A stretch of DNA of 64,000 nucleotides, from assembly GCA_024277435.1 (NCBI GenBank), contig JAJRVJ010000009.1:1226-65225 (forward strand), written 5' to 3'. Below, piece by piece: positions 3,647 through 59,303 of this stretch; position 1 is the first letter of the stretch; every line of letters starts with the position of its first letter. The notes under the pieces were generated by a model, which was not told the origin of the DNA, did not search any database, and saw only the letters and a program-made list of their open reading frames with translations. A program made the translations under genes and the position numbers. This DNA is from Patescibacteria group bacterium. Its GTDB lineage: Bacteria; Patescibacteriota; Patescibacteriia; UBA9570.

Positions 3647-5071
3647 TTACACTGTGTGTAATTTAACCATGTTCGCTCCATGCGATTTACCTACCGGCTG
3701 ACCAGTAACTATTACAATATTATCTTTGGCTTTTACCAACTTAGTTTTTTTCATAAGAGCAGCCGACTTACGAATCAACTCATCAAGCGTTTTACACTTC
3801 GGTAATACATATGCCTGCGCACCCCATGTTAGAGCCATTTTATTTTGTGTGAGAGAATCATTTGTGAGTACAGCAATAATTATTTCCGGACGATGCCGCG
3901 CTACCATACGTGCTGTATGACCAGTAATCGAATTTACCACAATAGCTTTCACACCTTCTTGCTGAGCTAAATCATATGCCACAATAGAAATAGAGTCTTC
4001 AATGGATGCATGTTTAATCTGCAAATAATGCCCTGGCAGATCATCAAATTGAGAAGCTTCAGTTTTCTTAATAATATCAGTCATCATTTTTACCGATTCC
4101 ACTGGATATTTTCCAGAGGCGCTTTCACCGGAAAGCATTACTGCATCGGTATGATCTATTACTGCATTGGCTACGTCGGAAACTTCGGCACGAGTTGGCC
4201 GAGGATTAATCATCATCGATTCCAACATTTGTGTTGCCACAATTACTGGCTTGCCAACTAACATACATTTTTCAATCATGGTTTTTTGCGCCAATGGCAC
4301 GTCCGATGCTTTAATTTCAATACCCAAATCACCACGCGCTACCATAATCCCATCGGCCGCTTCAAGAATGCCATCAAAATTCTTTAACGCCTCCTTACGC
4401 TCGATCTTAGCAATAATATGTACGTCTTTATTTCCAAGTAATTTACGTAATGCCTGGACATTATTAGCATCCTTCACAAAGGATAGTGCTACAAAATCAA
4501 TACCGTTGCGCAAACCAAATTTTAGATCCTCTTTATCTTTTTTTGTAATTACCGTAGCATCGATAGTTGTGCCTGGTAAATTAATGCCTTTGTGTGAAAA
4601 AATAATACCCGCCTTTTGGACTACTCCATAAATATGCTGATCTTTTACACTCGTTACCTTAATATCAATCAAGCCATCATTAATTAAAATATGGCTACCC
4701 TTTTTTACATTCTTATATAGTGGCTTGTATCCAACAGGGATAATCTTCTCTTTACCCATAACCACCATTTTGTAATCTACCAAATCCTCGTGCGCTAATA
4801 CCACCTTCTCTCCCCGCGTAAGTTCAACGCCATCTTTTTGCACCTCTCCAACACGAATGCGTGGCCCCTGCAAATCTTGCATGATGGCAACGGTGTGGCC
4901 AAGCTCTTTAGCGGTACTACGAATGGTTTTTATAATTTCTTTGTGTTGAGTATATGTGCCATGAGAAAAATTTAAACGGGCCACATTCATACCCGCTTGC
5001 ATCATTTTCTTTAAGGTTATTTTTGTATTGGATGCTGGTCCAATTGTGCAGACAATTTTCGTTTTTTTCAT
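3647..5071 (-). CDS. pyk: Pyruvate kinase
   Basis: 474 aa beginning MKKTKIVCTIGPAS...ARLNFSHG, with full-length PK domain architecture. Confidence 0.92.
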   Translation of the reverse strand: MKKTKIVCTIGPASNTKITLKKMMQAGMNVARLNFSHGTYTQHKEIIKTIRSTAKELGHTVAIMQDLQGPRIRVGEVQKDGVELTRGEKVVLAHEDLVDYKMVVMGKEKIIPVGYKPLYKNVKKGSHILINDGLIDIKVTSVKDQHIYGVVQKAGIIFSHKGINLPGTTIDATVITKKDKEDLKFGLRNGIDFVALSFVKDANNVQALRKLLGNKDVHIIAKIERKEALKNFDGILEAADGIMVARGDLGIEIKASDVPLAQKTMIEKCMLVGKPVIVATQMLESMMINPRPTRAEVSDVANAVIDHTDAVMLSGESASGKYPVESVKMMTDIIKKTEASQFDDLPGHYLQIKHASIEDSISIVAYDLAQQEGVKAIVVNSITGHTARMVARHRPEIIIAVLTNDSLTQNKMALTWGAQAYVLPKCKTLDELIRKSAALMKKTKLVKAKDNIVIVTGQPVGKSHGANMVKLHTV

Positions 5072-5163
5072 AGATTTATTGTAACATATCTCGACCCCTC
5101 TCCCAATTCTTTCACTAACCGTTCAAGATCCCCTTCCCTCATTTTTAGGAGAGAAGGGGATAC

Positions 5164-5188
5164 AAAAAACCCCTCCTGAAAGGAGGGG
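5164..5188 (-). terminator. Intrinsic terminator downstream of efp
   Basis: cccctcct-gaaa-ggagggg hairpin followed by a T-run on the minus strand (AAAAAA on the plus strand at 5164-5169). A second hairpin lies at 5129-5160. Confidence 0.6.
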
Positions 5189-5209
5189 TTGGGGAGGGTC
5201 GATAAAAGC

Positions 5210-5782
5210 TTAATTCGAGCTCTTATTGGCACGCTCTACATATTCGCCAGTTTCTGTATTTACGATAATTTGCTCATCTTGCTTAATGAATAGCGGTACT
5301 GGTAATTCATATCCAGTTCCTAATCTCACACGTTTAGTGGCATTTCCAGCGGTATCACCTTTTACTCCCGGAGGAGCTTCCACAACGGTAAGCGTTACCT
5401 TTGGTGGAAGTGAGATTGTTACCGGCCTACCATTAAAACTCATTACTTCAACATCCTCACCTTCTTTCACAAAGTTTGAAATTTCACCAATAGCCTCAGC
5501 TTCAAGTGCAAACTGTTCGTAGGATTCATTATCCATAAATTGATACTGACTACCTTCAATGTACAAAAAATTTGCTTTTGTACGTGTTAAGTCAGCTTCC
5601 TCAATTTTATCACCACCCTTAAAGGTATGTTCACGAACAGATCCAGTGATGAGATTTTTAAGCTTAGTGCGTAATACAGCACTACCACGACCCATTTGCA
5701 AATGATCGGTTGAAATTACTCGGAATGGCGCCCCTTCAAAATCGAGCACCTTTCCAAGTTTAATATCGCTCATTGTTAACAT
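5210..5782 (-). CDS. efp: Elongation factor P
   Basis: 190 aa with full-length EF-P similarity (KLGKVLDFEGAPFRV...GDTAGNATK...). Start 3 nt after the rpsR stop. Confidence 0.9.
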   Translation of the reverse strand: MLTMSDIKLGKVLDFEGAPFRVISTDHLQMGRGSAVLRTKLKNLITGSVREHTFKGGDKIEEADLTRTKANFLYIEGSQYQFMDNESYEQFALEAEAIGEISNFVKEGEDVEVMSFNGRPVTISLPPKVTLTVVEAPPGVKGDTAGNATKRVRLGTGYELPVPLFIKQDEQIIVNTETGEYVERANKSSN

Positions 5783-5785
5783 AGT

Positions 5786-6013
5786 TTATCTACGAACGTA
5801 AGGAATTAACGCCATGTAACGAGCTCGCTTTACAGCCTGAGCTAATTTACGTTGTGTTTTTGCATCGGTACCCAAACGTTTTGCTGGAAGAATTTTTGCA
5901 TAATTAGAAATTACGCGACGCACAATTTGCAAATTCTTATAATCCAACGCCCGCGGATCGATGTCTAACGGTTCGCGCTGTTTCTTTTTGCGCTTGTTAT
6001 ATTTGTAAGCCAT
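5786..6013 (-). CDS. rpsR: 30S ribosomal protein S18
   Basis: 75 aa: ...DYKNLQIVRRVISNYAKILPAKRLGTDAKTQRKLAQAVKRARYMALIPY. Confidence 0.92.
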   Translation of the reverse strand: MAYKYNKRKKKQREPLDIDPRALDYKNLQIVRRVISNYAKILPAKRLGTDAKTQRKLAQAVKRARYMALIPYVRR

Positions 6014-6040
6014 TATGATGTATGTTTGTTATTCGATAAT

Positions 6041-6484
6041 TTAGAATGGAATGTCTTCTACACTAATTTCTTCAGCTGCAGAACTTACATTTGGTTCTGG
6101 CGGAGCTTCTGTTGGTGCTGGAGCTGTAGTAGAAACTGGAGCTCCGCCACCGCCGGCACGAGAACTTAGCATAATAAGGTTATTGGCAATAATTTCTGTA
6201 CGATATTTCTTTACTCCACTCGGATCTTCCCAAGAACGAGTTTCAAGGCGTCCTTCAATATATACCTTCATACCTTTTTTCACATACTGCTGAATAATCT
6301 CGGCTAATTTGCGCCAAGCAACAATATTATGAAATTCTGCCTTCTCTTGCTTCCCACCAGATTGATCTGTCCATTGACGATTCGTAGCAATTGAAAATGA
6401 AGCTACCATTTGTCCAGATGGAATTGTTTTTACTTCAGGATCACGGGTTACATTACCGATGATCATTACTTTATTAAGATCCAT
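6041..6484 (-). CDS. ssb: Single-stranded DNA-binding protein
   Basis: OB-fold N-terminus, Gly/Pro-rich linker and the canonical acidic DIPF C-terminal tail. Confidence 0.9.
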   Translation of the reverse strand: MDLNKVMIIGNVTRDPEVKTIPSGQMVASFSIATNRQWTDQSGGKQEKAEFHNIVAWRKLAEIIQQYVKKGMKVYIEGRLETRSWEDPSGVKKYRTEIIANNLIMLSSRAGGGGAPVSTTAPAPTEAPPEPNVSSAAEEISVEDIPF

Positions 6485-6503
6485 AGATGTAATACTTAAT
6501 AAT

Positions 6504-7130
6504 TTATAATTTAGTTTCGATATCTGTATCGTCTAAGATTGCGTCGAGCTTTTTATCAAGATCTTCTACTGATACACTTTTAGGATCTGCTGCTTCTTTT
6601 TCTTCAGTAACTTCTTCAGCTTTTGTTTCACCAGGCGCTAAATCACCTTTTGCTTCAGCTGCACTTTCTTCCGCTGGTTTTTCCACTGGTTTCTCAATAG
6701 GTTTTTCGGCTGCACGTTCTTTAGCGCGTTTAGCATCTTCTTCTACACCACCTTCAGTAGCCTTTACTGGCTCTTCAACAATTGGTTGAGCTTGCCCAGG
6801 ATGATGATCGGCTAACATTTTTGTAAGCTCTTCTTCAGTACGTTGAATACCTTTTACAAGTAGGTACCGTAATACATCTGGATCAAGGCGAAGTTGCTTA
6901 TCTAACTCAGCCATTTGGCTACGTTCGATATTAAAATACACCAAGTAATAATGACCTGATGTTTGTCGCTTTACTTGGTATTGTAAACGACGTCGACCTA
7001 AATCATGGTCGGCAACGATGCTACCACCTGCGGCAGTAACAAGACCCATGGCGCGTTCTTTCACTGCAGGAACTTGGCTCTCATCTAAGGAACCAGGAAC
7101 AATGAACATTAGTTCATATACTTCATTCAT
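6504..7130 (-). CDS. rpsF: 30S ribosomal protein S6 with ~110-aa acidic E/K/P-rich C-terminal extension
   Basis: MNEVYELMFIVPG... S6 fold, then a tail EKPIEKPVEKPAEE.... The ORF could extend to the upstream Met at 7154. Forms the classic rpsF-ssb-rpsR arrangement. Confidence 0.85.
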   Translation of the reverse strand: MNEVYELMFIVPGSLDESQVPAVKERAMGLVTAAGGSIVADHDLGRRRLQYQVKRQTSGHYYLVYFNIERSQMAELDKQLRLDPDVLRYLLVKGIQRTEEELTKMLADHHPGQAQPIVEEPVKATEGGVEEDAKRAKERAAEKPIEKPVEKPAEESAAEAKGDLAPGETKAEEVTEEKEAADPKSVSVEDLDKKLDAILDDTDIETKL

Positions 7131-7278
7131 ATATTTTTTCTTTTGTGCGTACATCCATTATTGCTATACTCGCACGATTCGAGGACAATAATATGGATAA
7201 TTAAGGATGCAACACTTAATAAATTAGCCTGCGTAGTGTACCAATAAGTTATTATGGTGTCAACTGCCGTGAGATGCC

Positions 7279-7307
7279 AAAAAACCCCTGTATTTTCAGG
7301 GGTTTTT
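7279..7307 (-). terminator. Bidirectional intrinsic terminator (cccctg-tatttt-cagggg) after the response-regulator gene
   Basis: Hairpin flanked by an A-run upstream and TTTTT downstream. Confidence 0.55.
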
Positions 7308-7330
7308 GATACATATTATTATGTGAGAAG

Positions 7331-7696
7331 CTAGATATATTTATTAATCTTCTCAACTACACTACTCATTGTTTGCTCGGCTTTAAGTAAGTAGTCAACT
7401 GCGCCGAGATCTAACCCTCGTTGCTTATCTGACTCCTGTTCTAATACAGTTAGAATAATCACAGGAATATCCTTAAGAGCTTCATCAGCCTTTACTTCTT
7501 TAAGAACATCAAATCCATTCTTTACAGGTAAAATAAGGTCAAGAAGAATTAAGTCTGGTTTTTCTTTACCTAGCGCTACCAATGCCTCTGCTCCATCTAA
7601 AACAGACTCAACAACAAACCCTCCCCTTTCAAGGCCATCCTTGAAGATTCTGGAATAGAACTTATCATCTTCAACAAGTAAGATTTTTTTATTCAT
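7331..7696 (-). CDS. Stand-alone CheY-like receiver-domain response regulator (no output domain)
   Basis: 121 aa: ILLVEDD...DLILLDLILP...K motifs. Lies immediately downstream of the histidine kinase. Confidence 0.85.
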   Translation of the reverse strand: MNKKILLVEDDKFYSRIFKDGLERGGFVVESVLDGAEALVALGKEKPDLILLDLILPVKNGFDVLKEVKADEALKDIPVIILTVLEQESDKQRGLDLGAVDYLLKAEQTMSSVVEKINKYI

Positions 7697-7723
7697 ACTC
7701 TTCTTTTTAATGATTATTGATAA

Positions 7724-9073
7724 TTATATTCGTCTTATGGGAATAGTAACATAAAATATAGAGCCCCTCCCCTTTCCTTTTGACTCAAACCAAATTTTAC
7801 CTCCTAACGACTCAATAATTGATTTTGCAACATATAATCCTAATCCAGACCCTTCTGTTCTAGACCTTTTTGCATCATCTGTTCTAAAAAATTTAGTAAA
7901 AATATTCTTTCGATCCTTTTCATCTATCCCAATGCCTGAGTCTTTTACAGATATCTTATATTCTCCCGCCTGTGCATTTTTTGTTAATTCAACGAACACA
8001 CGAGATGCCTTTGGAGAATAATATAGTGCATTACTAATTAAATTCCGAATCACTTGAAAAAAATAAATATGATCCACTCTTATCATTTCATTATCTTGTA
8101 AATGTGGTGTAAATACAATTTCCTGCCCTTCCTCTCTTGCTAATAAGCTAAATTCTTTAATAAGTTCTTCAATACCCTCCTTGATATTAATATTAACTGG
8201 CTTGAATTCTAGTTTGGCAGACTCAAGCCTAGATACATCAAGTAGCTCATGAACAAGCTGATGCATGCGCACATTAGAATTATGTATTAAATCCAAATAT
8301 TCTTTTTGTTTTTCATTGATCTTTCCATAATCTTCATTCAATAATGATTCAGTAAGAAGCTTAATGGCGCCAAGCGGTGTATTAAGTTGATGAGATGCAG
8401 AAGATACAAACTCTGATTTTGCACGACTCAACCGCTGCTCTTCACTGACATCTTTAAATACCACAACGCTACCATGAATCTTCTCATCACCATCAATAAC
8501 AGGTGCCGCGCACACAGAAATAGGGATAACATTGTGTGATTTTTTTATTCGCAAATAAATATTATTTACCTCTGTGAAACCGCTACATAAATTAATAGAC
8601 TTATTTACCACAGAAGCAATTGAATCAAGAACATTTGCTCCAGACTCATCTGTGGTAACAAAAACAGCATCGTACTTTTTACCAAGTACATTACTTTCTT
8701 TAGCACCAATAAAATCAAGAGCAACCCGGTTTATAGCTGTAATAGCATTATCTTCATCTATTACAAATAAGCCTTCACCAATACTTTCAATAATAGCCTC
8801 CGCTCGATTTTTTTCTTTTTCTAAAGCCATCTCTCCTTTTTTTCTATCTGTAACATCACGAATAATGGCCATTGTTCCCGACTTCCCTTTAAAAGAAATT
8901 TGTTGCGCAGAAATTTCTGTATGCCTAATCACGCCGTCTTTTCTGATGGCATCAAACGAGTATTGTTTTGGAACATCTTTTCCGGCCAAACGATCCTGAT
9001 ATCTTTTTAAGATCAATGGACGATGATACTCTGCAACAAGTTGTAGTATTGGCATTCCAATAAGCTCTTCCAC
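7724..9073 (-). CDS. PAS-HisKA-HATPase sensor histidine kinase (C-terminal portion of a disrupted larger sensor; starts at GTG directly after an in-frame TAG)
   Basis: H-box FVSSASHQLNTPL and ATP-binding GSGLGLYVAKSIIESLGG. Its first codons, VEELIGMPILQL, complete a PAS motif begun in the upstream ORF. Confidence 0.8.
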   Translation of the reverse strand: MEELIGMPILQLVAEYHRPLILKRYQDRLAGKDVPKQYSFDAIRKDGVIRHTEISAQQISFKGKSGTMAIIRDVTDRKKGEMALEKEKNRAEAIIESIGEGLFVIDEDNAITAINRVALDFIGAKESNVLGKKYDAVFVTTDESGANVLDSIASVVNKSINLCSGFTEVNNIYLRIKKSHNVIPISVCAAPVIDGDEKIHGSVVVFKDVSEEQRLSRAKSEFVSSASHQLNTPLGAIKLLTESLLNEDYGKINEKQKEYLDLIHNSNVRMHQLVHELLDVSRLESAKLEFKPVNINIKEGIEELIKEFSLLAREEGQEIVFTPHLQDNEMIRVDHIYFFQVIRNLISNALYYSPKASRVFVELTKNAQAGEYKISVKDSGIGIDEKDRKNIFTKFFRTDDAKRSRTEGSGLGLYVAKSIIESLGGKIWFESKGKGRGSIFYVTIPIRRI

Positions 9074-9706
9074 CTAATAGCCTGTAATCTTAACGGTTGC
9101 ATGATTTGTAAATACTAATTTTCCATCCTGTATGATATTAATACTGTCATGCGCACCATTAACAACCGCAGAATACTTAGTCTCGGATTCTTGTAATTTT
9201 GCAAAAGCCTCCTGTCGCTCCGTAACATCTTCATGCATCATGACTACACTCTGAATCGTATCATTTTTATCTTTGATAGAGTATATCTGCGACTGCACCC
9301 AACGCTTCCTGCCCCTTATCTTAACCGACGTTGTTTTTTCTGGCGTATATTCAAACACTGGAAGAGTAACTACCTCTCCTGCAAACGCTTTTTCAATAAG
9401 AGGCATAAATCCCAATGCTCGAATCTGATCATCTTTTAAGATATTATACTTTTTATGAATCAACGATAATTCTTCTCGACTCACATCCCATAATTTACTA
9501 TACGCATCATTAACTTGTGTGATTTTACCGTCAGGCGTCATTATTTGAATAGCAATAGTAGACTGCTCCATTAACATTCTGAATTTTTCTTCGCTCTGCT
9601 GCAACTCAAGCTTTGTCTGCTCAAGATCTTCAAGCATATTCAATAAAACAGCAGGCTTAAGCAGCTTCTTAGTAGTACGTTCCTTGTTTCTTGCTCTCTT
9701 AATCAA
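9074..9706 (-). CDS. PAS-domain linker protein (middle fragment of disrupted sensor kinase)
   Basis: Coiled-coil linker followed by a PAS fold. Ends ...VFTNHATVKITGY then TAG, which is the TGYxxEELIG PAS signature interrupted by a stop. Confidence 0.7.
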   Translation of the reverse strand: MIKRARNKERTTKKLLKPAVLLNMLEDLEQTKLELQQSEEKFRMLMEQSTIAIQIMTPDGKITQVNDAYSKLWDVSREELSLIHKKYNILKDDQIRALGFMPLIEKAFAGEVVTLPVFEYTPEKTTSVKIRGRKRWVQSQIYSIKDKNDTIQSVVMMHEDVTERQEAFAKLQESETKYSAVVNGAHDSINIIQDGKLVFTNHATVKITGY

Positions 9707-10721
9707 GGGATGTATCTTTATACTTTTTTAGCTCCTTTTTAAGTTCGATCATCTTTTCTTCACGTCCAACAGAATGTTTCGCAAACTTCTGTAACTGTGT
9801 ATTTAATTTTGAAATTGAAACATACCTCCATGCAACCATCATAATCATCACCACTCCAATCATTATGCCAGCAAAAGATGCTACGCGCGCTGCCGTCCAA
9901 TATGGCGCTGGTTCTGCGAACCATTTCACATACATTTCATGATACTCTTCTGTTTCTAAAAACTGTCTAAGCGCTTGATCGAGGCGTTGCTGTAATTCAA
10001 CATCTCCCTCTGCAACGGCAATGCCTCTCTTTATTTCTTCAAGCGGCTCGCCAACAACTTGAATTTTATCACTCAAGCCAGTATCTTCTGTAAGTCGTAA
10101 CATCACCGGCTGTGGATATGCTAGCGCATCAACATTGCCCGATAATAATTCAAAAAAAGCATCGTATGGATGTTGAAATACTTCAAAATACATCCCTTTA
10201 TTCTGCAGTAAGGTTACAGCAACATTCTCCTCAACAATAGCAACGTGCTTACCACGCAAATCATCAACGCTTTCGATTCCCTTACTATCTGCTCGAACAA
10301 ATATAGACACACTAAATGCCTCCATTGGAATAGTAAAATCTAAATATTCATCACGCTCATCAGTGATGCCAATATTTGGGATCACATCGGCCTCGCCGTC
10401 ACGCATTACCTGTAATACCTCGGACCATGTCTCCTCTATTTGATAGGTTAGATTGATATTCGCACGCTTAGCCACCTCATTCATTACATCAATGGCAAAC
10501 CCATATGGCTCACCTAATTCGTCTATAGAATATTGCGGTGGAAATAATTTTGGTATCACAGCAATAACATCAATTTCTTCCATAACATCACCTGTAGCCA
10601 CTGTCTCGTCTTTATCATGGGCAGCAAAAATAACATGTGGAGCACTAAATAACGCTATAGAAACACAAACAAATACAATACTAGCTATTGTATAATTAAA
10701 TTTTGTAAGCTCATTTGTCAT
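9699..10721 (-). CDS. Periplasmic solute-binding (SBP family 3 / amino-acid-binding-like) sensor domain + TM + coiled-coil (N-terminal fragment of sensor kinase)
   Basis: Signal/TM anchor, PBPb-type domain, C-terminal TM (FAGIMIGVVMIMMVAW) and a coiled-coil. Overlaps the next ORF by 8 nt in another frame. Confidence 0.7.
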   Translation of the reverse strand: MTNELTKFNYTIASIVFVCVSIALFSAPHVIFAAHDKDETVATGDVMEEIDVIAVIPKLFPPQYSIDELGEPYGFAIDVMNEVAKRANINLTYQIEETWSEVLQVMRDGEADVIPNIGITDERDEYLDFTIPMEAFSVSIFVRADSKGIESVDDLRGKHVAIVEENVAVTLLQNKGMYFEVFQHPYDAFFELLSGNVDALAYPQPVMLRLTEDTGLSDKIQVVGEPLEEIKRGIAVAEGDVELQQRLDQALRQFLETEEYHEMYVKWFAEPAPYWTAARVASFAGIMIGVVMIMMVAWRYVSISKLNTQLQKFAKHSVGREEKMIELKKELKKYKDTSLD

Positions 10722-10889
10722 CTCGAAAAATCTTATCGAGTTATTCCTGCAGCATGCTCTATGCTATGCAGTATATCACTTCATATTTGCGTGGCAAATA
10801 AAACCCCCGCTCAAACTCATCCCTCTTCTCTACATACATCAATATAGTATATGTACAGGAAAGGACCGGAAGATACGTGGATCAATCCA

Positions 10890-11370
10890 CTATTCTCGAC
10901 GTCCGGCTGGAACACAATCAAGATAGCTCCTAGCTCCATCGAGGTAGATCCGCCAGCGGCCCTCATAGAAGGCCTGACTGAACTCGATCTCCTCGCGGGT
11001 GTAGTGCTTGTAACGCTTCAGCAAGGCGTCAATATCCTTGACCAGGCCAAAGTACAGATGGGTACAGAGGTGAATCCTCTCCAGCTGCCTGCCAACAGTT
11101 ATCTGCGGATCAATGTCTCCCTGCTCGGTCAACTGCTGCGTTCAAGATGCAGATGTAGGCTTCAGCCGTAAGAGGCTTCGTGTTCTTAGCGAGGTCGATA
11201 AGCCGCCGTATGACGCAGATGTAGCGTCCCTTCGTGCGACAAGTGTGGGAGGTGCGGAACTTCCCACTCTTGCGGAACATCTCCTCAGCAACGAGAATCT
11301 GCACATCTTCAAGAGTAATGCGATCCATGATGTAAATTCCTTTGGGAATGTGCGGTATCAAGTGAAACAA
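10890..11370 (-). pseudogene. GC-rich island carrying a frameshifted ~165-aa ORF of unknown family (foreign-looking remnant)
   Basis: Composition at 10860-11340 is clearly more GC-rich than the flanks. Two overlapping minus-strand ORFs (11370-11110 and 11132-10890) would join by a 1-nt shift near 11125. Confidence 0.4.
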
Positions 11371-11475
11371 AAGCGATTCAAATGACTATGCAGTATAGTT
11401 AATTAGCGTATAATGTAAATTTAATAATTATATATAGTAAATATTGAATATTTTTAGCTAACATTATATAATTAT

Positions 11476-11507
11476 TTGTAATAATATTTATTACAACATT
11501 ATATAAT
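11476..11507 (+). promoter_or_regulatory. Putative sigma70-like promoter for the TrmB-family regulator, embedded in two direct repeats aacattatataat (11460 and 11495)
   Basis: TTGTAA ... TATAAT/TTATAT 12-20 nt upstream of the ATG. Direct repeat and ATTATT-N3-AATAAT dyad in the same AT-rich spacer. Confidence 0.3.
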
Positions 11508-11518
11508 AATCTCAAGAC

Positions 11519-12289
11519 ATGAAGTTAGATGAAGTAAAAAAACTTGTAGAAAGCATTGGATTATCCGATAAAGAAGCCTCCGTATATTTATCTCTATTAT
11601 CTTTTGATTACTTAAAAGTGTCTGATTTAGCCAAAAAAGTCGATATTCACCGAGTTGCACTATATGCAGTACTGGATAACTTAATTCAAAAGGGCTTAGC
11701 TAATAAATTCAAAAAAAGTGGCGCAACTTACTTTAGCGCCTTATCCCCTAAGCGACTGTTAAACTACATGGATCGTGAACGTGAAGATATGGAGGCTCGA
11801 TACGAAAAGCAACGCAAATTATTAGAAGAAATGATCCCTAAAATAGAATCTACTCGATTTGAACAAAGTGATAAGCCGCACGTCCAGTTTTATGAAGGAA
11901 AAAAAGGTATGCGTGAAGCCTACGAAGATACACTCACTGCCCAAGAAACTATTAGAGCATATGCCAATGTACAAACCATGCACGAAGCATTACCAAATTT
12001 CTTTCCAAAATATTATAAACGCCGTACCGACGCTAAAATCGCGATCCGTGCAATTATGCCAAACAATACCGCCTCACAAGAACGCGCAGAAAAAGACCCG
12101 CAAGAATTACGCCAATCACGATTTCTTACTGATGACAATACATTTTCACCAGAGGTAAATATTTATAACAACAAAGTACTCATCACTTCATGGAAAGAAC
12201 AGATGGCTATTATTATTGAATCCAAAGAATACGCCGATCTTCAAAAAAGTATTTACGACCAACTCTGGAAATCCCTGCCAAAAAGCTAG
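11519..12289 (+). CDS. TrmB-family transcriptional regulator (HTH + sugar-binding-like C-terminal domain)
   Basis: N-terminal wHTH DKEASVYLSLLSFDYLKVSDLAKKVDIHRVALYAVLDNLIQKGLA. The length of 256 aa is typical. Confidence 0.75.
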   Translation: MKLDEVKKLVESIGLSDKEASVYLSLLSFDYLKVSDLAKKVDIHRVALYAVLDNLIQKGLANKFKKSGATYFSALSPKRLLNYMDREREDMEARYEKQRKLLEEMIPKIESTRFEQSDKPHVQFYEGKKGMREAYEDTLTAQETIRAYANVQTMHEALPNFFPKYYKRRTDAKIAIRAIMPNNTASQERAEKDPQELRQSRFLTDDNTFSPEVNIYNNKVLITSWKEQMAIIIESKEYADLQKSIYDQLWKSLPKS

Positions 12290-12295
12290 AAAAGA

Positions 12296-12326
12296 AAAAC
12301 CCTCCCCTAAGTTAGGGGGGGGTAAA
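12296..12326 (-). terminator. Intrinsic terminator of ahcY (ccctcccctaa-g-ttagggggggg)
   Basis: GC hairpin followed on the minus strand by TTTTTCTTTT. Sits between convergent genes. Confidence 0.55.
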
Positions 12327-12352
12327 TCTTATAGTGATTTTGATAAACTACT

Positions 12353-14568
<2,216 letters not shown>

Positions 14569-14573
14569 GCGTA

Positions 14574-15734
14574 TTACTGAACCGCCTTCTTAAGCTGATC
14601 AACTTTATTGGTTTGTTCCCATGGAAACTCAGGGCGACCAAAGTGACCGTATGCTGCAGTAGCTCTATAAATAGGACGCTTAAGATCTAACTCCGTAATA
14701 ATTCCAGCTGGAGTAAGATCAAATGCTTCACGTACAGCTGCCACTAATTTTTCTGCGTCCACTTTACCGGTTCCAAATGTTTCAACCATTACACTTACTG
14801 GCTCTGGGAATCCAATGGCATAGGATAATTGTACTTCACAACGATCTGCTAAATCTGCCGCTACAATGTTCTTCGCAACGTACCGTGCCATGTAGGCACC
14901 GGATCGATCTTGCTTATTTGGTACTTTTCCAGAGAAGGCCCCACCACCATGTCGTCCCATACCACCGTAGGTATCAACAATAATTTTACGACCGGTTAAT
15001 CCAGTATCGCCGTGTGGGCCGCCAATTACGAACTTACCTGTCTCATTAATATAATATGTCGTATTTTCATCTGCTAAATCACCAATTACTGGGTCAATCA
15101 CATGCTTTTTAATATCTGCTCGAACCTGCTCTAAATCCATGTCGTCATGTTGAGCAGCAATTACTACTGCATCTACGCGTACTGGTTTACCATCTTCGTA
15201 CTCTACAGTTACCTGACTTTTACCATCTGGCCGTAGGTACGCAAGGGTACCATCTTTACGAACCTCTGCTAATTTCTTCGTTAGCCCATGTGCCAACATA
15301 ATTGGCATTGGCATAAGTTCTTCTGTTTCTTTACATGCATAACCAAACATCATACCTTGATCACCAGCACCTTGCTCTTTATGATCACCCTCTTCTAATT
15401 TTTCACCTTGAGCGATTTCAGTGCTCTGTTCATCAACGGTAACCATTACACCACAACTATTGGCATCAATACCATACGCATCATCGGTATAACCAATATC
15501 GGTTAATACACCCCGAACGATACCAGGAATATCAACATATGTTTTTGTGGTGATCTCGCCACCCACTACTACTAAACCTGTTGTAGTGAACACCTCACAA
15601 CAACACGCTCCATCTGGGTCGTCTTTCAGTACTGCATCGAGTACTGCATCGGAAATTTGATCAGCAATCTTATCTGGATGCCCTTCGGTTACCGACTCCG
15701 AAGTAAATAATGTTCGTTCTTTTGAATTAGACAT
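14574..15734 (-). CDS. metK: S-adenosylmethionine synthetase
   Basis: [19 protein letters not shown] and the full MetK fold. Confidence 0.93.
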
Positions 15735-15941
15735 ATTTTACCTATCTTACGTAATTAAACGCGGTTAGGTATTGAGGCCTAGAAGTAATCGTTTATCTCG
15801 TAGAGAGCATAAGCGATGCAACCGCTAAACCTCGATATCTAAAAACCACGACGGTTAGTATAAACTAAGGTGAATAGCAGGTCAAACCCCATACTATGGC
15901 TTGTATCTTGAACGAAAAAATGACATAATAAGCAGCAGATT

Positions 15942-36001: not shown

Positions 36002-36808
36002 ATGAAAAAATACATTACTAATTCTGTCGGATATACAATTGTAGCGCTGCTTGGTTTAGCTCCAATACTACTGTTACTAGCTATATATTCACCATATCCC
36101 GGAATTATCTACATGCGACAAACATTTCGACCAAGCCCTGCTGCACAAAAGCTAGGTGTAAGTAATTTTTTTCCAGACTCCTCGTTATCTCCCGGAATAA
36201 ACCCAATTGAAAATTACCAAATACGTACCATTAATGATGCGGTTGACTTCACCGTAAAAAAAATACCCCGCACCACTTCTGCGGTAATGTACATTAATAT
36301 GAAGCAAAATGCAGCCGCTAGCGCATTACTGCACATAAGCGACACTGGTGGAGATGTCTCATATCGACTACTTGGAGCTGATGATTTTATTTCAAGTCTA
36401 CTAAAAAATGAAGACTATACGTACATTCAAGACCCTGAAACAGATATTACACTCTTCCAAAAAAAGACAAGTGCGTATTCTAGTATAAAAGAATTTATGA
36501 GTAATCCGCCGCGTAGTACCATTGGCCTTTACTATCCCCCATCGGATCAGCTAGACTCTTTTATTGAAAAAATACATACCACGCCACTTCACGCGAAAAA
36601 AAATAAACTAGCAAACGGTAATATCACTCTACCTAACTATATCATTACTTCCTGGCAAAATATCAACAATGATGAATTTGTTGAATATGAATTAAACTGG
36701 AATATGAACGCCCTTGCCATTGAACGGCAAGATTACTTTGCGTTTCGATTACGACCAAGTAGTGAGTATCCCATTACTATCAAACCAATTATCGTAGGAA
36801 TGCAATGA
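36002..36808 (+). CDS. N-terminally anchored hypothetical protein
   Basis: One N-terminal TM segment. Its stop overlaps the next gene's start as ATGA. Confidence 0.5.
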   Translation: MKKYITNSVGYTIVALLGLAPILLLLAIYSPYPGIIYMRQTFRPSPAAQKLGVSNFFPDSSLSPGINPIENYQIRTINDAVDFTVKKIPRTTSAVMYINMKQNAAASALLHISDTGGDVSYRLLGADDFISSLLKNEDYTYIQDPETDITLFQKKTSAYSSIKEFMSNPPRSTIGLYYPPSDQLDSFIEKIHTTPLHAKKNKLANGNITLPNYIITSWQNINNDEFVEYELNWNMNALAIERQDYFAFRLRPSSEYPITIKPIIVGMQ

Positions 36809-38733
36809 ATATGCTAAAAATATTGAAAGACTGGATAATCGAAATAATGCGCATAATGTTCATCCCGCTAATTATAGCGTATCTATTATTAGTAGTTACT
36901 GATGGAGTTAACCAAGATATTATTAGTCCATTTATTATTATTTCCGACTTTTCTATCCCACTTATATTCGTAGCGATAGGGTACGGTGCGCATATGTATG
37001 CAAATAAAAAGGTAAAAACCGCACTTTCAAAAAAAGCTCAGTGGACTATCCACACTAGCATCGCATCGATAATTGCCATTATCACATGGATCGCATTACA
37101 AGATTCATTGATCCTCTACAAAATAATATGTGCTCTGATCATAATGGTTGGATCACTATCTGCATACATTGCACAAAATAAATCACAAAAACGTTGGGCT
37201 ATTATTTCCATAGTTACTGTGTGTATTTTAGCTACCGCGTTGATAATTTCTTTCATTGCACAATACGAAATAGGTTTTATATCATTTGATTTTTGGAATC
37301 ACTATAACTCTAGTAAGGTCTATTCACTTACTGGAGTAGTTGGGTCATTACTATTATCGTATCAATCTTTTTATGTACTAATTGGTAGCATTCTCAATTT
37401 AACAAATACAAGCATTGCAAACGCACAAATTGTGTACACACTAAGTGTAGCTATGGTATATCTTCTTGGTGCATATAGTATGTACTATATAGGTTGTAAC
37501 CTAGGTAGTCGTCGCTATGGAATCATTAGCGCCATTATCTTCGCTTTATTTCCAATGACCACCTGGGGTGGGGCGGGATTCTTTATTCCTAATACCCTCT
37601 CTCTTATTGTATGGCCTCTACTGTTCTACTTTGGAATGCAAAAAAGGAGCAAACGTTCCATATTTCTATTCATATTAAGCGGCTTAGTTATCTTCTTATA
37701 TCATCCTTGGGATTTAGGAATTATTTTACCAGCGTTTATTATCTGGAAAGTATTCTTACAAAAACATGTTAAAGGTTTTATTTTGTGGTTTATAGTTTTT
37801 TCTGTGGGCTTTATAAGCACAGAAATTATACTGTTTATATTTGCTCCTGATTTATTCTTTTCACTACATGATTGGCTACCAAATTTTTATGGAATTTACA
37901 ATAACATAATCAGCACCATAAATACTCAATCTAGCTTCAATCCTCAGGTATTGTTTACACTAAAAAATATTTTCATTACACCTCTAGCAATAATTGGATC
38001 ATTATTTGTAATCATACGGTACATCCAAGAGCGCAATACAGGTAAATTACAGCCTATCACAAAATTCTTACTTGCTCATGTAATATTACTATATCTACTG
38101 CTATTTCTTGGATTTATTTTCGCATATAATTTTCGCATTGTTGTATTTGTCTTATTTGTCTGTGTACCGCTAGCCGCATACATGCTTCATCAATTATCAC
38201 GCCGTCATATAATAACTGGCTCTATGATCTTAGGCCTATCATTTAGTGCCCTACTATTACACAACGTAAATGTATATACAATATTAAATGGCTCAACCTA
38301 TAGTTCTCAATCGGAAAGTCAAAACATATATGCAGGACTCAAACAGATTGATCAAGAGGCTATTATACTTACCGACCCATACAGCCGTACATTTCTTATA
38401 GCGCTTGGAGCTCGCTATCGCATCCATACTAATCCTGATGAAGAAAATGAATACTATCAGATTTTTCATGAGCAAGATTGGACAGAGTCTCAGATTAAAT
38501 ATATTCAAACATGGGATATTAAATATATTGCTATTACAAATCGTACCGTAGAATGGGCACGAACCGGTAAGCCAACAACTGCTGTAACCAACTACTTATC
38601 AAGAATTGATAGCTTTATTTCCACAAAAGAAACCCTGACAGATAAACTATCAGGCGATCTCAAAGCTATTTATAAGAGTGATGAATTTTCACTCTACCAG
38701 ATTCCGGAAGATCCGGCTGCGCTACTGTATTAA
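36805..38733 (+). CDS. Large polytopic membrane protein (>12 TM) with C-terminal extracytoplasmic domain; putative GT-C-like glycosyltransferase/polymerase
   Basis: 642-aa paralog of the 33816 gene. No confident family assignment. Confidence 0.55.
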   Translation: MNMLKILKDWIIEIMRIMFIPLIIAYLLLVVTDGVNQDIISPFIIISDFSIPLIFVAIGYGAHMYANKKVKTALSKKAQWTIHTSIASIIAIITWIALQDSLILYKIICALIIMVGSLSAYIAQNKSQKRWAIISIVTVCILATALIISFIAQYEIGFISFDFWNHYNSSKVYSLTGVVGSLLLSYQSFYVLIGSILNLTNTSIANAQIVYTLSVAMVYLLGAYSMYYIGCNLGSRRYGIISAIIFALFPMTTWGGAGFFIPNTLSLIVWPLLFYFGMQKRSKRSIFLFILSGLVIFLYHPWDLGIILPAFIIWKVFLQKHVKGFILWFIVFSVGFISTEIILFIFAPDLFFSLHDWLPNFYGIYNNIISTINTQSSFNPQVLFTLKNIFITPLAIIGSLFVIIRYIQERNTGKLQPITKFLLAHVILLYLLLFLGFIFAYNFRIVVFVLFVCVPLAAYMLHQLSRRHIITGSMILGLSFSALLLHNVNVYTILNGSTYSSQSESQNIYAGLKQIDQEAIILTDPYSRTFLIALGARYRIHTNPDEENEYYQIFHEQDWTESQIKYIQTWDIKYIAITNRTVEWARTGKPTTAVTNYLSRIDSFISTKETLTDKLSGDLKAIYKSDEFSLYQIPEDPAALLY

Positions 38734-45845: not shown

Positions 45846-45965
45846 TGACTTAAGATTTAAGTATTAATTAAGGTTGAATTGTAGCACATATTATCAATAA
45901 TGTCATGAAACAATTTTGTGTTCTTCCAACCCATACATAGTATCTTATAGTAATAGTCAGAATAT

Positions 45966-46304
45966 ATGAAAAAAATGTACTTTTCTTTTGGATAGCAAAA
46001 AGCGCAGGCACAAGCATTCATTCAGTATTAGAGAAATATGATTATCCCTTATTAAAGTTACCGAAGGATTATAAACAATTTACTAATAGCGGATTTATTA
46101 CATCGCTTTTCCCTTCGCTACAACAAAAAACTTACCTTTCTTCCACTGCCAAAATTGGGTAATTTCAATGCGATTGACCTAAGTCAAGCTAACCCACAAG
46201 TTGATTGGCTCACCAACGATAATGGAAATTTACTCGTTGACTTTGTTGGCAAAATGGAAACATTATCCGCTAATGCAAATACTGCATTTGATTACACATT
46301 TTAG
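45966..46304 (+). pseudogene. Relic of a sulfotransferase-family gene (N- and C-terminal fragments, frameshifted, middle deleted)
   Basis: MKKMYFSF/WIAKSAGTSIHSVLEKY matches the fIHIPKTGGTS motif. ...NGNLLVDFVGKMETLSANANTAFDYTF matches the C-terminal vDFvGr.E.L motif. Stops and shifts lie between them. Confidence 0.45.
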
Positions 46305-46384
46305 GAAATTTAGGTGTGAATACCGGGCTTACTTGAATCAGAGAAACCAACACACTCCCCGATGCAATCACATCTCTACGTTAA

Positions 46385-46886: not shown

Positions 46887-48497
46887 CTAGAGTGATTTTA
46901 CCATATACTCTTCGGCTAATTCATAGCCAAGCTTCTCGTAATATTTTCGTACACCAACACCGGCAATTACTGCCGATTTTTTGAATCCTTTTTCTTTTGC
47001 CACCATCTCGGCTTCAGCCATAAGTTTTCTACCCAACCCACGATGCTGCGCTGCCTTACTTACTTTATCTGATACTGGAATTAATTGGCCATATACATGG
47101 AGTTCTCGAATAATCGCCGCATCCTGAAGCTCTTCATACCAGTGATGATCTATAGATTGTAACCGTAAACGCACAAAACCAAATAGCTTTGTTCTATCTG
47201 CATTTTCATACGAAATAAAATATTCTGTTCCATCAGATGCTTCATACTCATCAATATATAATTGCGCTTCTTCAATACCAGAAATATCATCGCGTGGCTC
47301 ACGACAACGGATACAATCACACTGTGCGCCCTTATCTTGCATCATCTGGCGTAAATTAGTTACTGTATTTCCGCCCTCAATAGAATTTTCAGGAATATCA
47401 CGGACTAATCTTTCAATTCGACAATAATAAGGAACCTCATTTTTAATATCAATTAATAAATCTGTCAACGTTTGCTCTGAATATGATTTATAACGCCCTG
47501 CTTTCCAATGGCGATACAGTGGTGCAGATTTTACTACTACACAAGGATAAATTTTAATGTGATCGGGCTGATACGCTGGATCTGAAAAAATAGTTTTAAT
47601 ATCATGCAAATCAGTTTCAGGTATTGCCCCCGGTAAGTTTTGCATCATGTGATAGGTAATTTTAATCCCGGCTTCTTTCAATAACTTAGTTGCCTGTTGC
47701 ACACCCTCATTTGTTTGATCACGCAGCGTTAAAGCTAATACATGCTTATTTAATGTTTGCACACCAATTTGCATACGGGTAGCACCAAACCAGCGCAACC
47801 GCTTTACTTCTGCCTCATCAATATGATCTGGTCGAGTTTCTAACGTACAACCAATCACTCTATATTTTGCTATTTCATTTAAACGCTTGGCCTCTTCAAG
47901 TGTTTCTGCACCATCCGGCCGCTCATCTAAATTAAAGCCATCGTAACAACGCTTCATGAACCATTCTTGATAATCATTTGGATACGCTGTCCAAGTTCCT
48001 CCCAATACAATTAATTCACACTTTTCTGGAATGTGTCCATTACGCTCCAATGCCTCAATGCGTTTTGTTACTTGTTCATACGGATCAAACTTTAAACGCA
48101 ACGCTCGCATTGCGCCCGGCTCGGTATCAATATAACTCTTCGGCATATTCGATTCGGTTGGACAGTACGTACAACGACCTGGACACTGATACGGTTTCGT
48201 AAGAACTGTAATAGGTGCAATACCAGATAGTGTACGCACACTCCGCACCTGAAGTATTCTCATAAACGCAAAATCCTCTTCCATGTCACCTTGCTCAATC
48301 ATAGTGCGATACTCTTTAAGGATATCTGCGTTCGTAGGCATTTGAATTTTATACTCCTTACATATCTCCGCTTTTACTCGGCGCAATTCCAAAGCATCGC
48401 CAACGCTGCGGTTGATGGATTTCGTAATAATTTCACGCACTGCCTCTACTGGTGACGTTACTTTATTATCTAATTTTGTTACAGGCCCTGTATTCAT
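46887..48497 (-). CDS. elp3: Elp3-like radical-SAM + GNAT protein (tRNA wobble-uridine carboxymethyl/acetyl-transferase homolog)
   Basis: Radical-SAM CPGRCTYC (CxxxCxxC), a TIM-barrel region, and a C-terminal GNAT with HRGLGRKLMAEAE. The length of 536 aa matches Elp3. Confidence 0.85.
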   Translation of the reverse strand: MNTGPVTKLDNKVTSPVEAVREIITKSINRSVGDALELRRVKAEICKEYKIQMPTNADILKEYRTMIEQGDMEEDFAFMRILQVRSVRTLSGIAPITVLTKPYQCPGRCTYCPTESNMPKSYIDTEPGAMRALRLKFDPYEQVTKRIEALERNGHIPEKCELIVLGGTWTAYPNDYQEWFMKRCYDGFNLDERPDGAETLEEAKRLNEIAKYRVIGCTLETRPDHIDEAEVKRLRWFGATRMQIGVQTLNKHVLALTLRDQTNEGVQQATKLLKEAGIKITYHMMQNLPGAIPETDLHDIKTIFSDPAYQPDHIKIYPCVVVKSAPLYRHWKAGRYKSYSEQTLTDLLIDIKNEVPYYCRIERLVRDIPENSIEGGNTVTNLRQMMQDKGAQCDCIRCREPRDDISGIEEAQLYIDEYEASDGTEYFISYENADRTKLFGFVRLRLQSIDHHWYEELQDAAIIRELHVYGQLIPVSDKVSKAAQHRGLGRKLMAEAEMVAKEKGFKKSAVIAGVGVRKYYEKLGYELAEEYMVKSL

Positions 48498-48556
48498 AAG
48501 CTACGGAAGGATACTGTAAATACACGAATAAATCAAGATACCCTTATACTACGGCT

Positions 48557-49064
48557 CTATGTAAGCTGCATTAACTGAATAGCATCTCCTATACGAGGAT
48601 TATAATATAGATAGTAATGAAAATCCGCCAATATAAATTCACTAGCACTCATCTGGCCAACAAATTCATAACCCTCCATTGGCGAAGTGAATCCATGCTG
48701 CACAGGCAACGGATACAGTCCAAAAAATACTCCTCTCCCCCTACCTTTAGATCCTGCATTGCAGTATATACTAAACTCTGCCAATTATTGTATTCAGCAT
48801 TATTCGTATCAATTACAGGTTGCGGTGGAACAGCAGCTGGCCAATCATAATCCGTAAATGCACATACCCCTTTGGCAACTTATCCGCGTATCCTGCAATT
48901 AGCTCCTCAAATGGAGCAATCTCTTTTACTGAAAAAGCAATGTCAGCAACCTTACCGTTTGTGTAAGAAATTTCTACCTCCTCAAGATCTGGCGCCTCCC
49001 AATATAATAACGGTAGCCGACCGCTCCACGCTGGACTTACTAATTGCAAATCAATCCAACACAA
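48557..49064 (-). pseudogene. Degenerate coding remnant (two out-of-frame minus-strand ORFs, possibly a GyrI-like/unknown small-protein gene)
   Basis: ORFs 49064-48813 and 48784-48557 are separated by a stop and shift. The protein-like composition is on the minus strand only. Confidence 0.25.
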
Positions 49065-49252
49065 TGGCGCAATCTTATCTTATAAGTGCTCAAATCCCTA
49101 TTGAAACACATCATTCCATTCAGGAAATAAGGTTGAGTGTTCGGCTCGTCTTTAAATGAATATGTAGTAAACATTTTCATAATGGTTGTACATGTTCTCT
49201 AACATTATCTATACTACCACATATACGGCCCACTAAAAGATGGCTAAGAATT

Positions 49253-50062: not shown

Positions 50063-50815
50063 ATGCATGAAAATCTATTACTCAAAGCTGGCTTAACTGA
50101 TAACCAAGTACGTATTTACGATCTCTTACTCCGTAAAGGGCCAGCCACCGCCGCTGAGCTAACCGAAGTCACTAAGATGCAACGCGGAAGCGTATATTAT
50201 GTTCTTGATAGTTTAATAGCAGAAGAACTCATTGAAAAAACCAAGCGAGGTGCAAAAACACTCTTTCAAGCGGCACATCCAACTGTATTAATGGAGTATA
50301 TTAATCGCAAAAAAAAATACAATTGAGCAAGTTGAAAACTCATTAAGTACAGCCATGCCAAGCATGATAGAAAACTATAAATTATCTAACAAGCTACCAG
50401 GTGTATATGCTTTAGAGGGTAAGAAGGTATTCAGCGAGCATTCAACGAATTACTAAAAGATAACTTACCAATTTTAGCTATTGAGGATACAGGTATTTTA
50501 TACGATTTAATGCCAGCATATGAAGAAGAATTCATGAGGCAAACAGTTGCCATGAAACATAAAAATCGCTCCGTCATTCCCTCAAGTAATCAACGCGTAT
50601 TCAAAGATGAAGAAAAAGCATGGGAGTATCGAAGTATCGATGTTGAAAAATTTCCATTTAAAATGGATATCACCATAACAGATAAACGTGTAATTATTAG
50701 TTCGGTTCAAGAAAAAACTGCCATTGGTGTAGTAATTATTCATGATGAAATTATCAGAAACTTCAAAATATTATTTGAAGTATTATGGTCTATTGGAAAA
50801 CCAGACGCAGTATAA
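50063..50815 (+). pseudogene. TrmB-family regulator paralog, disrupted by two frameshifts (first at an A9 homopolymer, 50315-50323)
   Basis: HTH ORF 50063-50326. Shifting frames gives ...IEQVENSLSTAMPSMIENYKLSNKLPGVYALEGKKVFSEH... and then IQRAFNELLKDNLPILAIEDTG..., both aligning with the 11519 TrmB protein. Confidence 0.6.
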
Positions 50816-58661: not shown

Positions 58662-59303
58662 CTATACAAGCGGATCGGTACTAAACCCTTGCATATTATG
58701 TCGTAACTGCAGCGTAATTGCAAATAACAAACTTACTATAGCTATACCTGTTGATAATAAAAATATCCAGGTTGAATTAGACAGCGCCTCTTCTTGAGTA
58801 ACCTCAAATTGAGCGACTACTTCTTCATCACTACGCACTCCATTATATATGGTTTGCACATATGCTTCATACATACCATGATCTAGTTCATCAACAGGAA
58901 CCTCCACACTCCACACTCCATCTATATTTGCAGTTGTTGAAGTACGTATATAACTATTTGGGATAAGAATTGTTACCGCAGTACCTGGTTGCAATGCCTC
59001 TCCAGAAAAATAGATTACTGTTTCTTGATCCTTCTCTAAAAAACTATCTAATCCAATATATTGAATGGTATTTAATCGAACCGTATTATTAACAACCTCC
59101 TTTTGAGCAATGACAATATCATTTTGCTTAGCTTGAACGCTCATGTTAGGAATAATTTCTTGTTGCAAAATACGATTAGCCTCTTGTAGATCATTAACAG
59201 AAACTACTTGATATTCTTGGGTAGCAAAACCAACACTAGGCAATAATACGCTAAGTGCAATATATATTCCTATTATATATTTTAAATTTGCATTAATTTG
59301 CAT
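58662..59303 (-). CDS. Secreted hypothetical protein sharing the C-terminal anchor module (..EE.LSN.TW-TM-LQLR) with the adjacent giant protein
   Basis: Signal peptide. C-terminus AQFEVTQEEALSNSTWIFLLSTGIAIVSLLFAITLQLRHN matches the giant protein's ARFVIEEETRLSNTTWLVIINIIVALIALMVSIILQLRKQ. Confidence 0.55.
   Translation of the reverse strand: MQINANLKYIIGIYIALSVLLPSVGFATQEYQVVSVNDLQEANRILQQEIIPNMSVQAKQNDIVIAQKEVVNNTVRLNTIQYIGLDSFLEKDQETVIYFSGEALQPGTAVTILIPNSYIRTSTTANIDGVWSVEVPVDELDHGMYEAYVQTIYNGVRSDEEVVAQFEVTQEEALSNSTWIFLLSTGIAIVSLLFAITLQLRHNMQGFSTDPLV

Follow-up and report, generated by a model that had tools for sequence, protein, structure and literature searches.

The stretch of DNA analysed here, called the window below, comprises 64,000 nucleotides (nt) of contig JAJRVJ010000009.1 (positions 1,226 to 65,225) from the assembly GCA_024277435.1, a metagenome-assembled genome (MAG) of a member of the Patescibacteria (Candidate Phyla Radiation, CPR). 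On the minus strand of this contig lie open reading frames (ORFs) for a membrane sensor, a kinase and a receiver protein. The original prediction read the first two as a single large sensor kinase gene with a solute-binding protein (SBP) domain, broken into three ORFs by a frameshift in the linker and a TAG inside a PAS domain. It is, in our view, more likely than not that the locus instead consists of a sensor gene, a separate kinase gene with three PAS domains and one nonsense codon, and a receiver gene, with one lesion and not two.

Layout of the locus

The features of the locus are listed here by window position.

10721..9699, minus strand: ORF1, complete gene for a membrane sensor with an SBP_bac_3 domain; 340 amino acids (aa), TAA stop
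9915..10562, minus strand: SBP_bac_3 (Venus-flytrap-type) ligand-binding domain, ORF1 residues 54-269; PF00497, E 3.9e-26
9828..9884, minus strand: transmembrane (TM) segment VASFAGIMIGVVMIMMVAW, ORF1 residues 280-298; read from the sequence
9723..9800, minus strand: tail motif KLNTQLQKFAKHSVGREEKMIELKKEL, ORF1 residues 308-333 of 340, followed by KKYKDTSLD and the stop; found with a profile of 120 tails
9699..9706, minus strand: 8-nt overlap of ORF1 (TAA at 9701..9699) and ORF2 (TTG at 9706..9704)
7724..9706, minus strand: ORF2, TAG and ORF3 read as one gene for a soluble kinase with three PAS domains, HisKA and HATPase_c; 660 codons, one interruption
9706..9074, minus strand: ORF2, 210 aa; TTG start, TAG stop at 9076..9074
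9637..9635, minus strand: alternative ATG start of the kinase gene, 61 nt past the ORF1 stop
9224..9586, minus strand: PAS domain 1, ORF2 residues 41-161; PF00989, E 1e-7
8852..9178, minus strand: PAS domain 2, split by the stop; PAS_9 match with 34 aa (9178..9077) in ORF2 and 74 aa (9073..8852) in ORF3
9074..9076, minus strand: in-frame TAG inside PAS domain 2, after its first third; probably the sole lesion
9073..7724, minus strand: ORF3, 449 aa; GTG directly 3' of the TAG
8447..8800, minus strand: PAS domain 3, ORF3 residues 92-209; PF00989, E 8.6e-17
8219..8422, minus strand: HisKA (DHp) domain, ORF3 residues 218-285, H-box SASHQLNTPL with the histidine present; PF00512, E 2e-18
7733..8068, minus strand: HATPase_c domain; PF02518, E 7.5e-28
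7331..7696, minus strand: response regulator with a receiver domain only, 121 aa, intact; PF00072, E 5.1e-23

The sequence facts in the original prediction are all correct: there are three ORFs, ORF2 and ORF3 share one frame (...ITGY-TAG-VEELIGMP), and ORF1 and ORF2 overlap by 8 nt. Its domain content was also borne out by Pfam, with SBP_bac_3 in ORF1, PAS in ORF2, and PAS, HisKA and HATPase_c in ORF3. The frame of ORF2 is +1 relative to that of ORF1. Around the stop the sequence reads GGC TAT TAG GTG GAA GAG, and an ATG follows six codons (18 nt) further on. The receiver gene is found 27 nt downstream of the kinase gene.

ORF1 encodes, in this order, an N-terminal signal or TM helix, the SBP_bac_3 domain, a TM helix and a cytoplasmic helical tail that ends at a natural TAA. 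The SBP_bac_3 domain has sub-threshold similarity to GlnH and to Lys/Arg/Orn binding proteins, and the motifs PYW...WRYxSxxKLN flanking the TM segment are common to ORF1 and its homologues. An AlphaFold2 model (mean pLDDT 89.6) shows the SBP fold at residues 50-268 and a single unbroken helix from residue 277 to residue 338, at the C-terminus, so that the TM helix runs on into the tail. Only families of the SBP type were matched by ORF1, and no kinase, cyclase or other output domain. Its 340-aa product is annotated as a separate protein in a public collection.

The TAG inside the kinase gene

When the stop was replaced by X and the 127-aa stretch around it was scanned with Pfam, a PAS_9 match was obtained that spans the TAG (profile positions 6-103 of 103, 42.6 bits, E 8e-11). 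In a local tblastn search with 120 homologues, dozens of single alignments cross positions 9074-9076, and the homologues have S, E, A or T at this column. The claim that the TAG interrupts a genuine PAS domain is thus upheld by both kinds of evidence, and the join is not due to chance. It also holds that the TAG is a single base change away from a sense codon, in this case from codons for the residues seen at that column in the homologues. As the homologues are continuous across this point, the gene is disrupted relative to intact relatives of the protein, as in a pseudogene. In other respects it looks like a class I HisKA-type kinase, with a DHp domain that has its histidine and an HATPase_c domain in which all boxes are intact (N, RNLISNALYY; G1, DSGIGI; F, FTKFF; G2, GSGLGL), but without the uninterrupted frame of such a kinase. 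PAS domain 1 is 38-40% identical to the PAS modules of three homologues (P0020, P0030 and P0031). If the TAG acts as a stop it would leave a 210-aa fragment with PAS domain 1 and, at best, an N-terminally truncated kinase as well, should translation restart at the GTG next to the stop or at the ATG six codons on.

The loci of relatives were located through pyruvate kinase, for which the best matches that carry a name come from Patescibacteria and Kerfeldbacteria. Seven syntenic loci with 70-75% nucleotide identity keep the block of genes for S6, SSB, S18, EF-P and pyruvate kinase, and the operon is absent from them. Synteny between window positions 7160-15800 and the loci L041, L042, L044, L045 and L046 breaks at the start of S6, and the relatives have glycosyl- and methyltransferase genes in place of the receiver, kinase and sensor genes of the window. 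The proposed check for an intact copy in relatives found none: the operon is missing from the same position in all seven loci and no close orthologue turned up in any collection searched. More specifically, no orthologue of the ORFs above about 50% identity was found in 5.8 billion proteins, in the GTDB species genomes or in JGI metagenome contigs. The best database matches have 28-47% identity, each of the three ORFs forms a singleton cluster, and look-ups of the exact products of ORF1 and the receiver gene gave no match. Because the operon is absent from the relatives and has no orthologue, it is lineage-specific and presumably dispensable.

On balance we take the TAG to be most probably a real and recent nonsense mutation that inactivates the kinase gene of this dispensable, lineage-specific operon. 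Around 30 other genes in the window give full-length domain matches, and 49 of the 55 long homopolymers lie within intact ORFs, so the assembly is not generally error-prone. One other gene is visibly broken. This is a gene for a TrmB-family regulator (window 50063-50815, plus strand) with two compensating single-base frame changes, the first at an A9 run (50309-50317) and the second, back into frame, near 50415-50434. The corrected product of 251 aa is collinear over 241 aa with an intact paralogue encoded at 11519-12289 (E 4e-21). Such a restriction of lesions to accessory regulatory genes is more in keeping with real decay than with random error. Pseudogenised accessory two-component genes offer a parallel, in that a single premature stop lies in a well-conserved sensor kinase and the operon is absent from relatives. 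They differ from the kinase in the window, which has one lesion and no further decay, a state in which a very recent event and an error cannot be told apart.

Several points weigh against a real mutation, and most of them are also what speaks for the main alternative, namely that the TAG arose by mistake in sequencing or assembly, or reflects a minority allele in the MAG consensus, and that the kinase is intact and the operon working in the organism. We regard this as a serious alternative, if a somewhat unlikely one. A single-base error in the consensus or a minority allele would suffice to explain the TAG. There is only one lesion, at the level of a single base, with no other sign of decay: all kinase motifs are intact and the catalytic motifs and the three PAS domains still score well. 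The contig is metagenome-assembled and was sampled once, as the singleton clusters of the ORFs illustrate. One frame change of the TrmB-family gene lies in an A9 run, where errors classically occur, and it could equally stem from the assembly. In addition, with a GTG right after the TAG and an ATG 18 nt on, some ORF3 product may still arise. Against an error stand the good condition of the homopolymers and of the other genes in the window, the rarity of stop-creating substitution errors in consensus sequence, and the fact that both visibly broken genes are accessory regulators, as would be expected of real decay.

The GTG that abuts the TAG and the ATG six codons later also bear on another explanation, in which the break is tolerated or even used: re-initiation at the GTG could give two polypeptides that reassemble, or low-level read-through could give a working full-length kinase. 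The kinase core is intact, and the genes in the window lack Shine-Dalgarno motifs, so that initiation seems not to require one. We nevertheless consider this explanation improbable. The stop falls within the PAS fold, past its first third, and none of the homologues is divided there. Scans of the window for a recoding signal, a tRNA or a structured element came up empty, and there is no sign that the arrangement is conserved.

It is worth noting what was found of start signals in the window in general. A Shine-Dalgarno-like purine motif is seen upstream of none of about 48 start codons in the window, and its absence is accordingly uninformative on whether the ORFs have starts of their own. Leaders in the window have a high AT content, and many finish with ...A(T/A)CT ahead of the ATG. 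A scan for promoters and terminators gave results at chance level.

The conserved C-terminal tail of ORF1

The end of ORF1 reads KFAKHSVGREEKMIELKKELKKYKDTSLD-stop. This corresponds to a tail of about 40 aa with the consensus ELERFNxLxVGRELKMIELKKEINELLxxxGxxxKYKIV-stop. A profile built from 120 independent tails matches ORF1 with 36.7 bits (E 1.2e-7 at Z=1e6); ORF1 is the sole match in a six-frame translation of the window, and the remaining matches of the profile end 0-10 residues from a C-terminus. In the local protein set the motif is present in 12 other proteins, six of them PAS-only and six of the SBP_bac_3-TM type (the latter from an exhaustive search with ORF1), and in all 12 it starts 16-35 aa before the natural C-terminus. 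A wider profile search with the tails gave 1087 proteins at E<=1e-3. Among the best 120 of these 1087 the tail is C-terminal in 118, and the motif starts 23-51 aa (median 29) ahead of the stop. Many sensor proteins without an output domain end in the tail, among them SBP_bac_3-TM, dCache, PAS-only and PAS/GAF proteins. Cases of it elsewhere are at 3722-4999 and 5001-7772 of locus L083, at 5001-9308 of L081 and at 5001-9335 of L080.

The tail has no match in Pfam, NCBIfam or the PDB, nor among plasmid records. A literature search by motif strings found no paper with the motif and no published name for the class. It was also considered whether the tail mimics helix 1 of the HisKA DHp domain, but hhalign gave a probability of 0.2% and the idea was dropped.

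Gene context was inspected at four other loci with tail-bearing, output-less sensor genes, and each of the four has a kinase gene further downstream in the same orientation, which makes five loci with the window. At one of them a dCache protein, which itself ends in the tail, is followed by the PAS-only protein P0026 and then by a PAS-kinase whose gene overlaps that of P0026 by 4 nt. At another, a REC-PAS-kinase comes 93 nt after P0108, with a REC gene behind it. Downstream of P0079 there is first a B12-binding protein and next a kinase, and downstream of P0044 a CHASE4 protein, then a PAS-kinase, then a REC gene. Gene overlaps of 4 nt and 26 nt occur at other loci, comparable to the 8-nt overlap of ORF1 and ORF2.

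The boundary between the sensor and kinase genes

Single-chain kinases with SBP, TM and PAS parts do exist, and the best database matches to the ORFs, such as P0007 and P0002, are of this single-chain kind and have one SBP domain each. One of these, P0007, is 940 aa long and has 96% query coverage. The region between the TM helix and PAS domain 1 in the window differs from that of the fused proteins. In 19 of the 19 fused homologues that were checked the linker is 25-35 aa long, and the tail motif is found in none of them; their alignment brings window position 9792 next to position 9646. Compared with all 19, about 45-48 extra aa separate the TM helix from PAS domain 1 in the window, and these extra residues are the tail together with the kinase's own N-terminus. 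A tandem duplication or insertion was tried as the source of the 45-48 residues and was rejected, as 141 of 500 shuffles did at least as well as the best internal DNA alignment, and flanking repeats were not found.

Taken together, ORF2 and ORF3 align along their full length, through the TAG, with soluble PAS kinases that occur as stand-alone proteins. In the case of the 617-aa P0029, residues 20-612 align with ORF2+ORF3 (E 2e-65), and similar matches are given by P0072 and P0075 (647 aa). The soluble kinases P0029, P0072 and P0109 align from their own N-termini, and the N-termini of the soluble homologues project to window positions 9634-9712, around the start of ORF2. The kinase in the window likewise has no predicted membrane segment.

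Since the tail of ORF1 sits at a natural C-terminus elsewhere and is absent from fused homologues, the window has a split architecture and not a frameshifted copy of a fused gene. The tail, the same gene order at other loci, the modelled helix that reaches the C-terminus of ORF1 and the match of ORF2+ORF3 to stand-alone kinases together identify ORF1 and ORF2+ORF3 as two genes. The proposed linker frameshift is therefore not upheld, the junction being a conserved type of gene end, and nor is the idea of one ancestral gene in three parts.

The model in the original prediction has a single SBP-TM-PAS-kinase gene that was hit twice, by a 1-nt indel in the linker (such as a change from A5 to A6 at 9724-9729) and by the TAG. 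It is not without attractions. P0007 is collinear with both parts (its residues 25-296 with ORF1 and 296-930 with ORF2+ORF3), and an A6 run adjoins the 26-nt stretch 9702-9727, the only place where both frames are open. However, such a model places the tail in the interior of a protein, against its C-terminal position in the roughly 130 other proteins examined, among which an internal copy was never encountered, and it leaves the excess over all 19 fused homologues to be explained. Homopolymers of at least six A or T turn up once in some 430 nt, which makes an A6 near the junction weak evidence. We consider this model quite improbable.

A programmed frameshift of the dnaX or prfB type was also considered for the junction and rejected. 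The in-phase A_AAA_AAG would shift the ribosome by -1 and run into a TAA after two codons, whereas the frame of ORF2 is +1, and a +1 frameshift site resembling CUU-UGA is not present in 9702-9727. As an observation in its own right, the CTA AAA AAG in ORF1 (window 9723-9732, minus strand) is an in-phase dnaX-type -1 slippery heptamer; slippage there would merely replace the last 9 residues of ORF1 by one valine.

Stop-codon usage in the window

Some Patescibacteria use a non-standard genetic code in which UGA is read as Gly, which raises the question of whether the TAG in the kinase gene could be a sense codon, through a reassigned code or pyrrolysine. TGA is indeed rare as a terminator in the window. 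The 56 ORFs of at least 100 aa end in TAA (36), TAG (16) or TGA (4). The TAG-ended ORFs have domains that are complete at their TAG, and beyond it the frame meets a further stop after 0-19 codons in 12 of 13 other cases; the remaining case runs on into a separate small gene. The TAG at 9074-9076 is the only in-frame TAG that joins two coding stretches in 64 kb. Scans for tRNA genes and Rfam families found none in the window. Because TAG is common as an ordinary terminator and there is no tRNA gene in the window, recoding is rejected and we give a sense reading of this TAG practically no credence; recoding across the whole genome is likewise rejected, on terminator usage and the short extensions past TAG.

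A proposed class of output-less sensors

In the present analysis a class was defined of output-less sensor proteins that end in a GRExxMxELK tail. ORF1 belongs to it, with a match to the tail profile in its last ~50 residues, a natural stop, input domains only and a kinase gene downstream. We tentatively suggest, as a possibility, that the tail marks a large and so far undescribed class of sensors, with SBP_bac_3, dCache, PAS or GAF and probably CHASE4 as inputs, that signal non-covalently to a kinase encoded just downstream.

When intact, the operon in the window would work as follows. Gene 1 (ORF1) provides an extracellular ligand domain, a TM helix that is extended as a cytoplasmic helix of about 40 residues, and the conserved tail, with no output domain. 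The kinase gene has its start either in the 8-nt overlap or 61 nt past the ORF1 stop, where there is an ATG. Ligand bound by ORF1 would lead to a signal to the separately encoded kinase, which is predicted from its domain content to autophosphorylate on the H-box histidine and pass the phosphate to the receiver. It is the recurrent gene order that suggests this coupling of ORF1 to the kinase. Two points weigh against it: the order with the kinase downstream is known from four loci plus the window, with no control set, and the downstream kinases differ in their N-termini, so that direct docking of the tail on the kinase is unproven.

Comparison with known systems

The BvgS/EvgS family (PMC4352136, PMC5829827) resembles the system in the window in having an SBP_bac_3 perception domain, a TM helix that leads into a cytoplasmic helix, PAS, and HisKA/HATPase_c. 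ORF1 has the extracytoplasmic SBP_bac_3 domain followed by a TM helix that is typical of BvgS-like sensors, but its perception module is not covalently joined to PAS and kinase by a short helical linker, as it is in those proteins. In the window the perception module and the kinase are separate polypeptides, and the tail of ORF1 is absent from the fused proteins. A further difference is that there is one SBP domain and not two, and the kinase is without receiver or HPt phosphorelay domains.

In the LuxP-LuxQ, TorT-TorS and ChvE-VirA systems, a kinase relies on a binding protein of the SBP fold that has a gene of its own. Binding proteins of the LuxP, TorT and ChvE type are soluble proteins of the periplasm, where they make contact with the periplasmic domain of a kinase that sits in the membrane. 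The window is similar in that an SBP-fold ligand protein is encoded apart from the kinase, but in the window this protein is membrane-anchored with a cytoplasmic tail, and it is the kinase that has no predicted membrane segment.

A third comparison is with split kinases such as CheA3/CheA4 of Rhodobacter sphaeroides (PMC3591291) and Hik36/Hik43 of Synechocystis (PMC7656254), where the phospho-acceptor part is separate from the dimerisation/catalytic part. As in these, a function that is usually found in one kinase polypeptide is spread over two genes. However, the kinase core in the window (DHp and catalytic domains) is undivided, and the input module alone is separate.

Other features of the window

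Downstream of the receiver gene, the gene for ribosomal protein S6 (window 6504-7154, minus strand) encodes 216 aa with a long acidic, Lys/Glu-rich C-terminal extension; the S6 proteins of relatives have 195-217 aa. An Elp3-like protein encoded at 46887-48497 (minus strand) combines an ELP3 N-terminal domain with radical SAM and GNAT acetyltransferase domains. Positions 16647-42272 hold a long cluster of genes for glycosyltransferases, a PMT_2-type mannosyltransferase, epimerase, asparagine synthase and polysaccharide export. The ORFs at 36002-38733 and 59293-64000 (the latter of more than 1529 aa) are without a Pfam match or fell outside the Pfam scan.

Three gaps between genes, at 45846-46384, 48498-49252 and 10722-11518, contain overlapping ORFs of 70-110 aa in different frames, on one strand in each gap. 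These three groups (at 45.9, 48.6 and 11.0 kb) were considered as further pseudogenes and set aside as they have no Pfam match; they may be frameshifted remnants.

Implications for annotation and for split sensors

For annotation, the locus should be represented as two genes plus a receiver gene, with a single internal stop in the kinase gene, and not as a triply fragmented pseudogene. An automatic repair of the reading frame across positions 9700-9730 would yield an artificial fusion. There is nothing unusual about the nonsense codon as such. The tail is the more interesting by-product of the analysis, being well conserved, present in more than 1000 proteins and absent from Pfam and NCBIfam. 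If the proposed class is real, many PAS or sensor proteins that now appear to be orphans would be the input halves of split sensor kinases, with the tail as the coupling element. Should the tail indeed couple sensor to kinase, this would explain how sensors without an output domain can signal, and it would provide a sequence marker for the inputs of split two-component systems.

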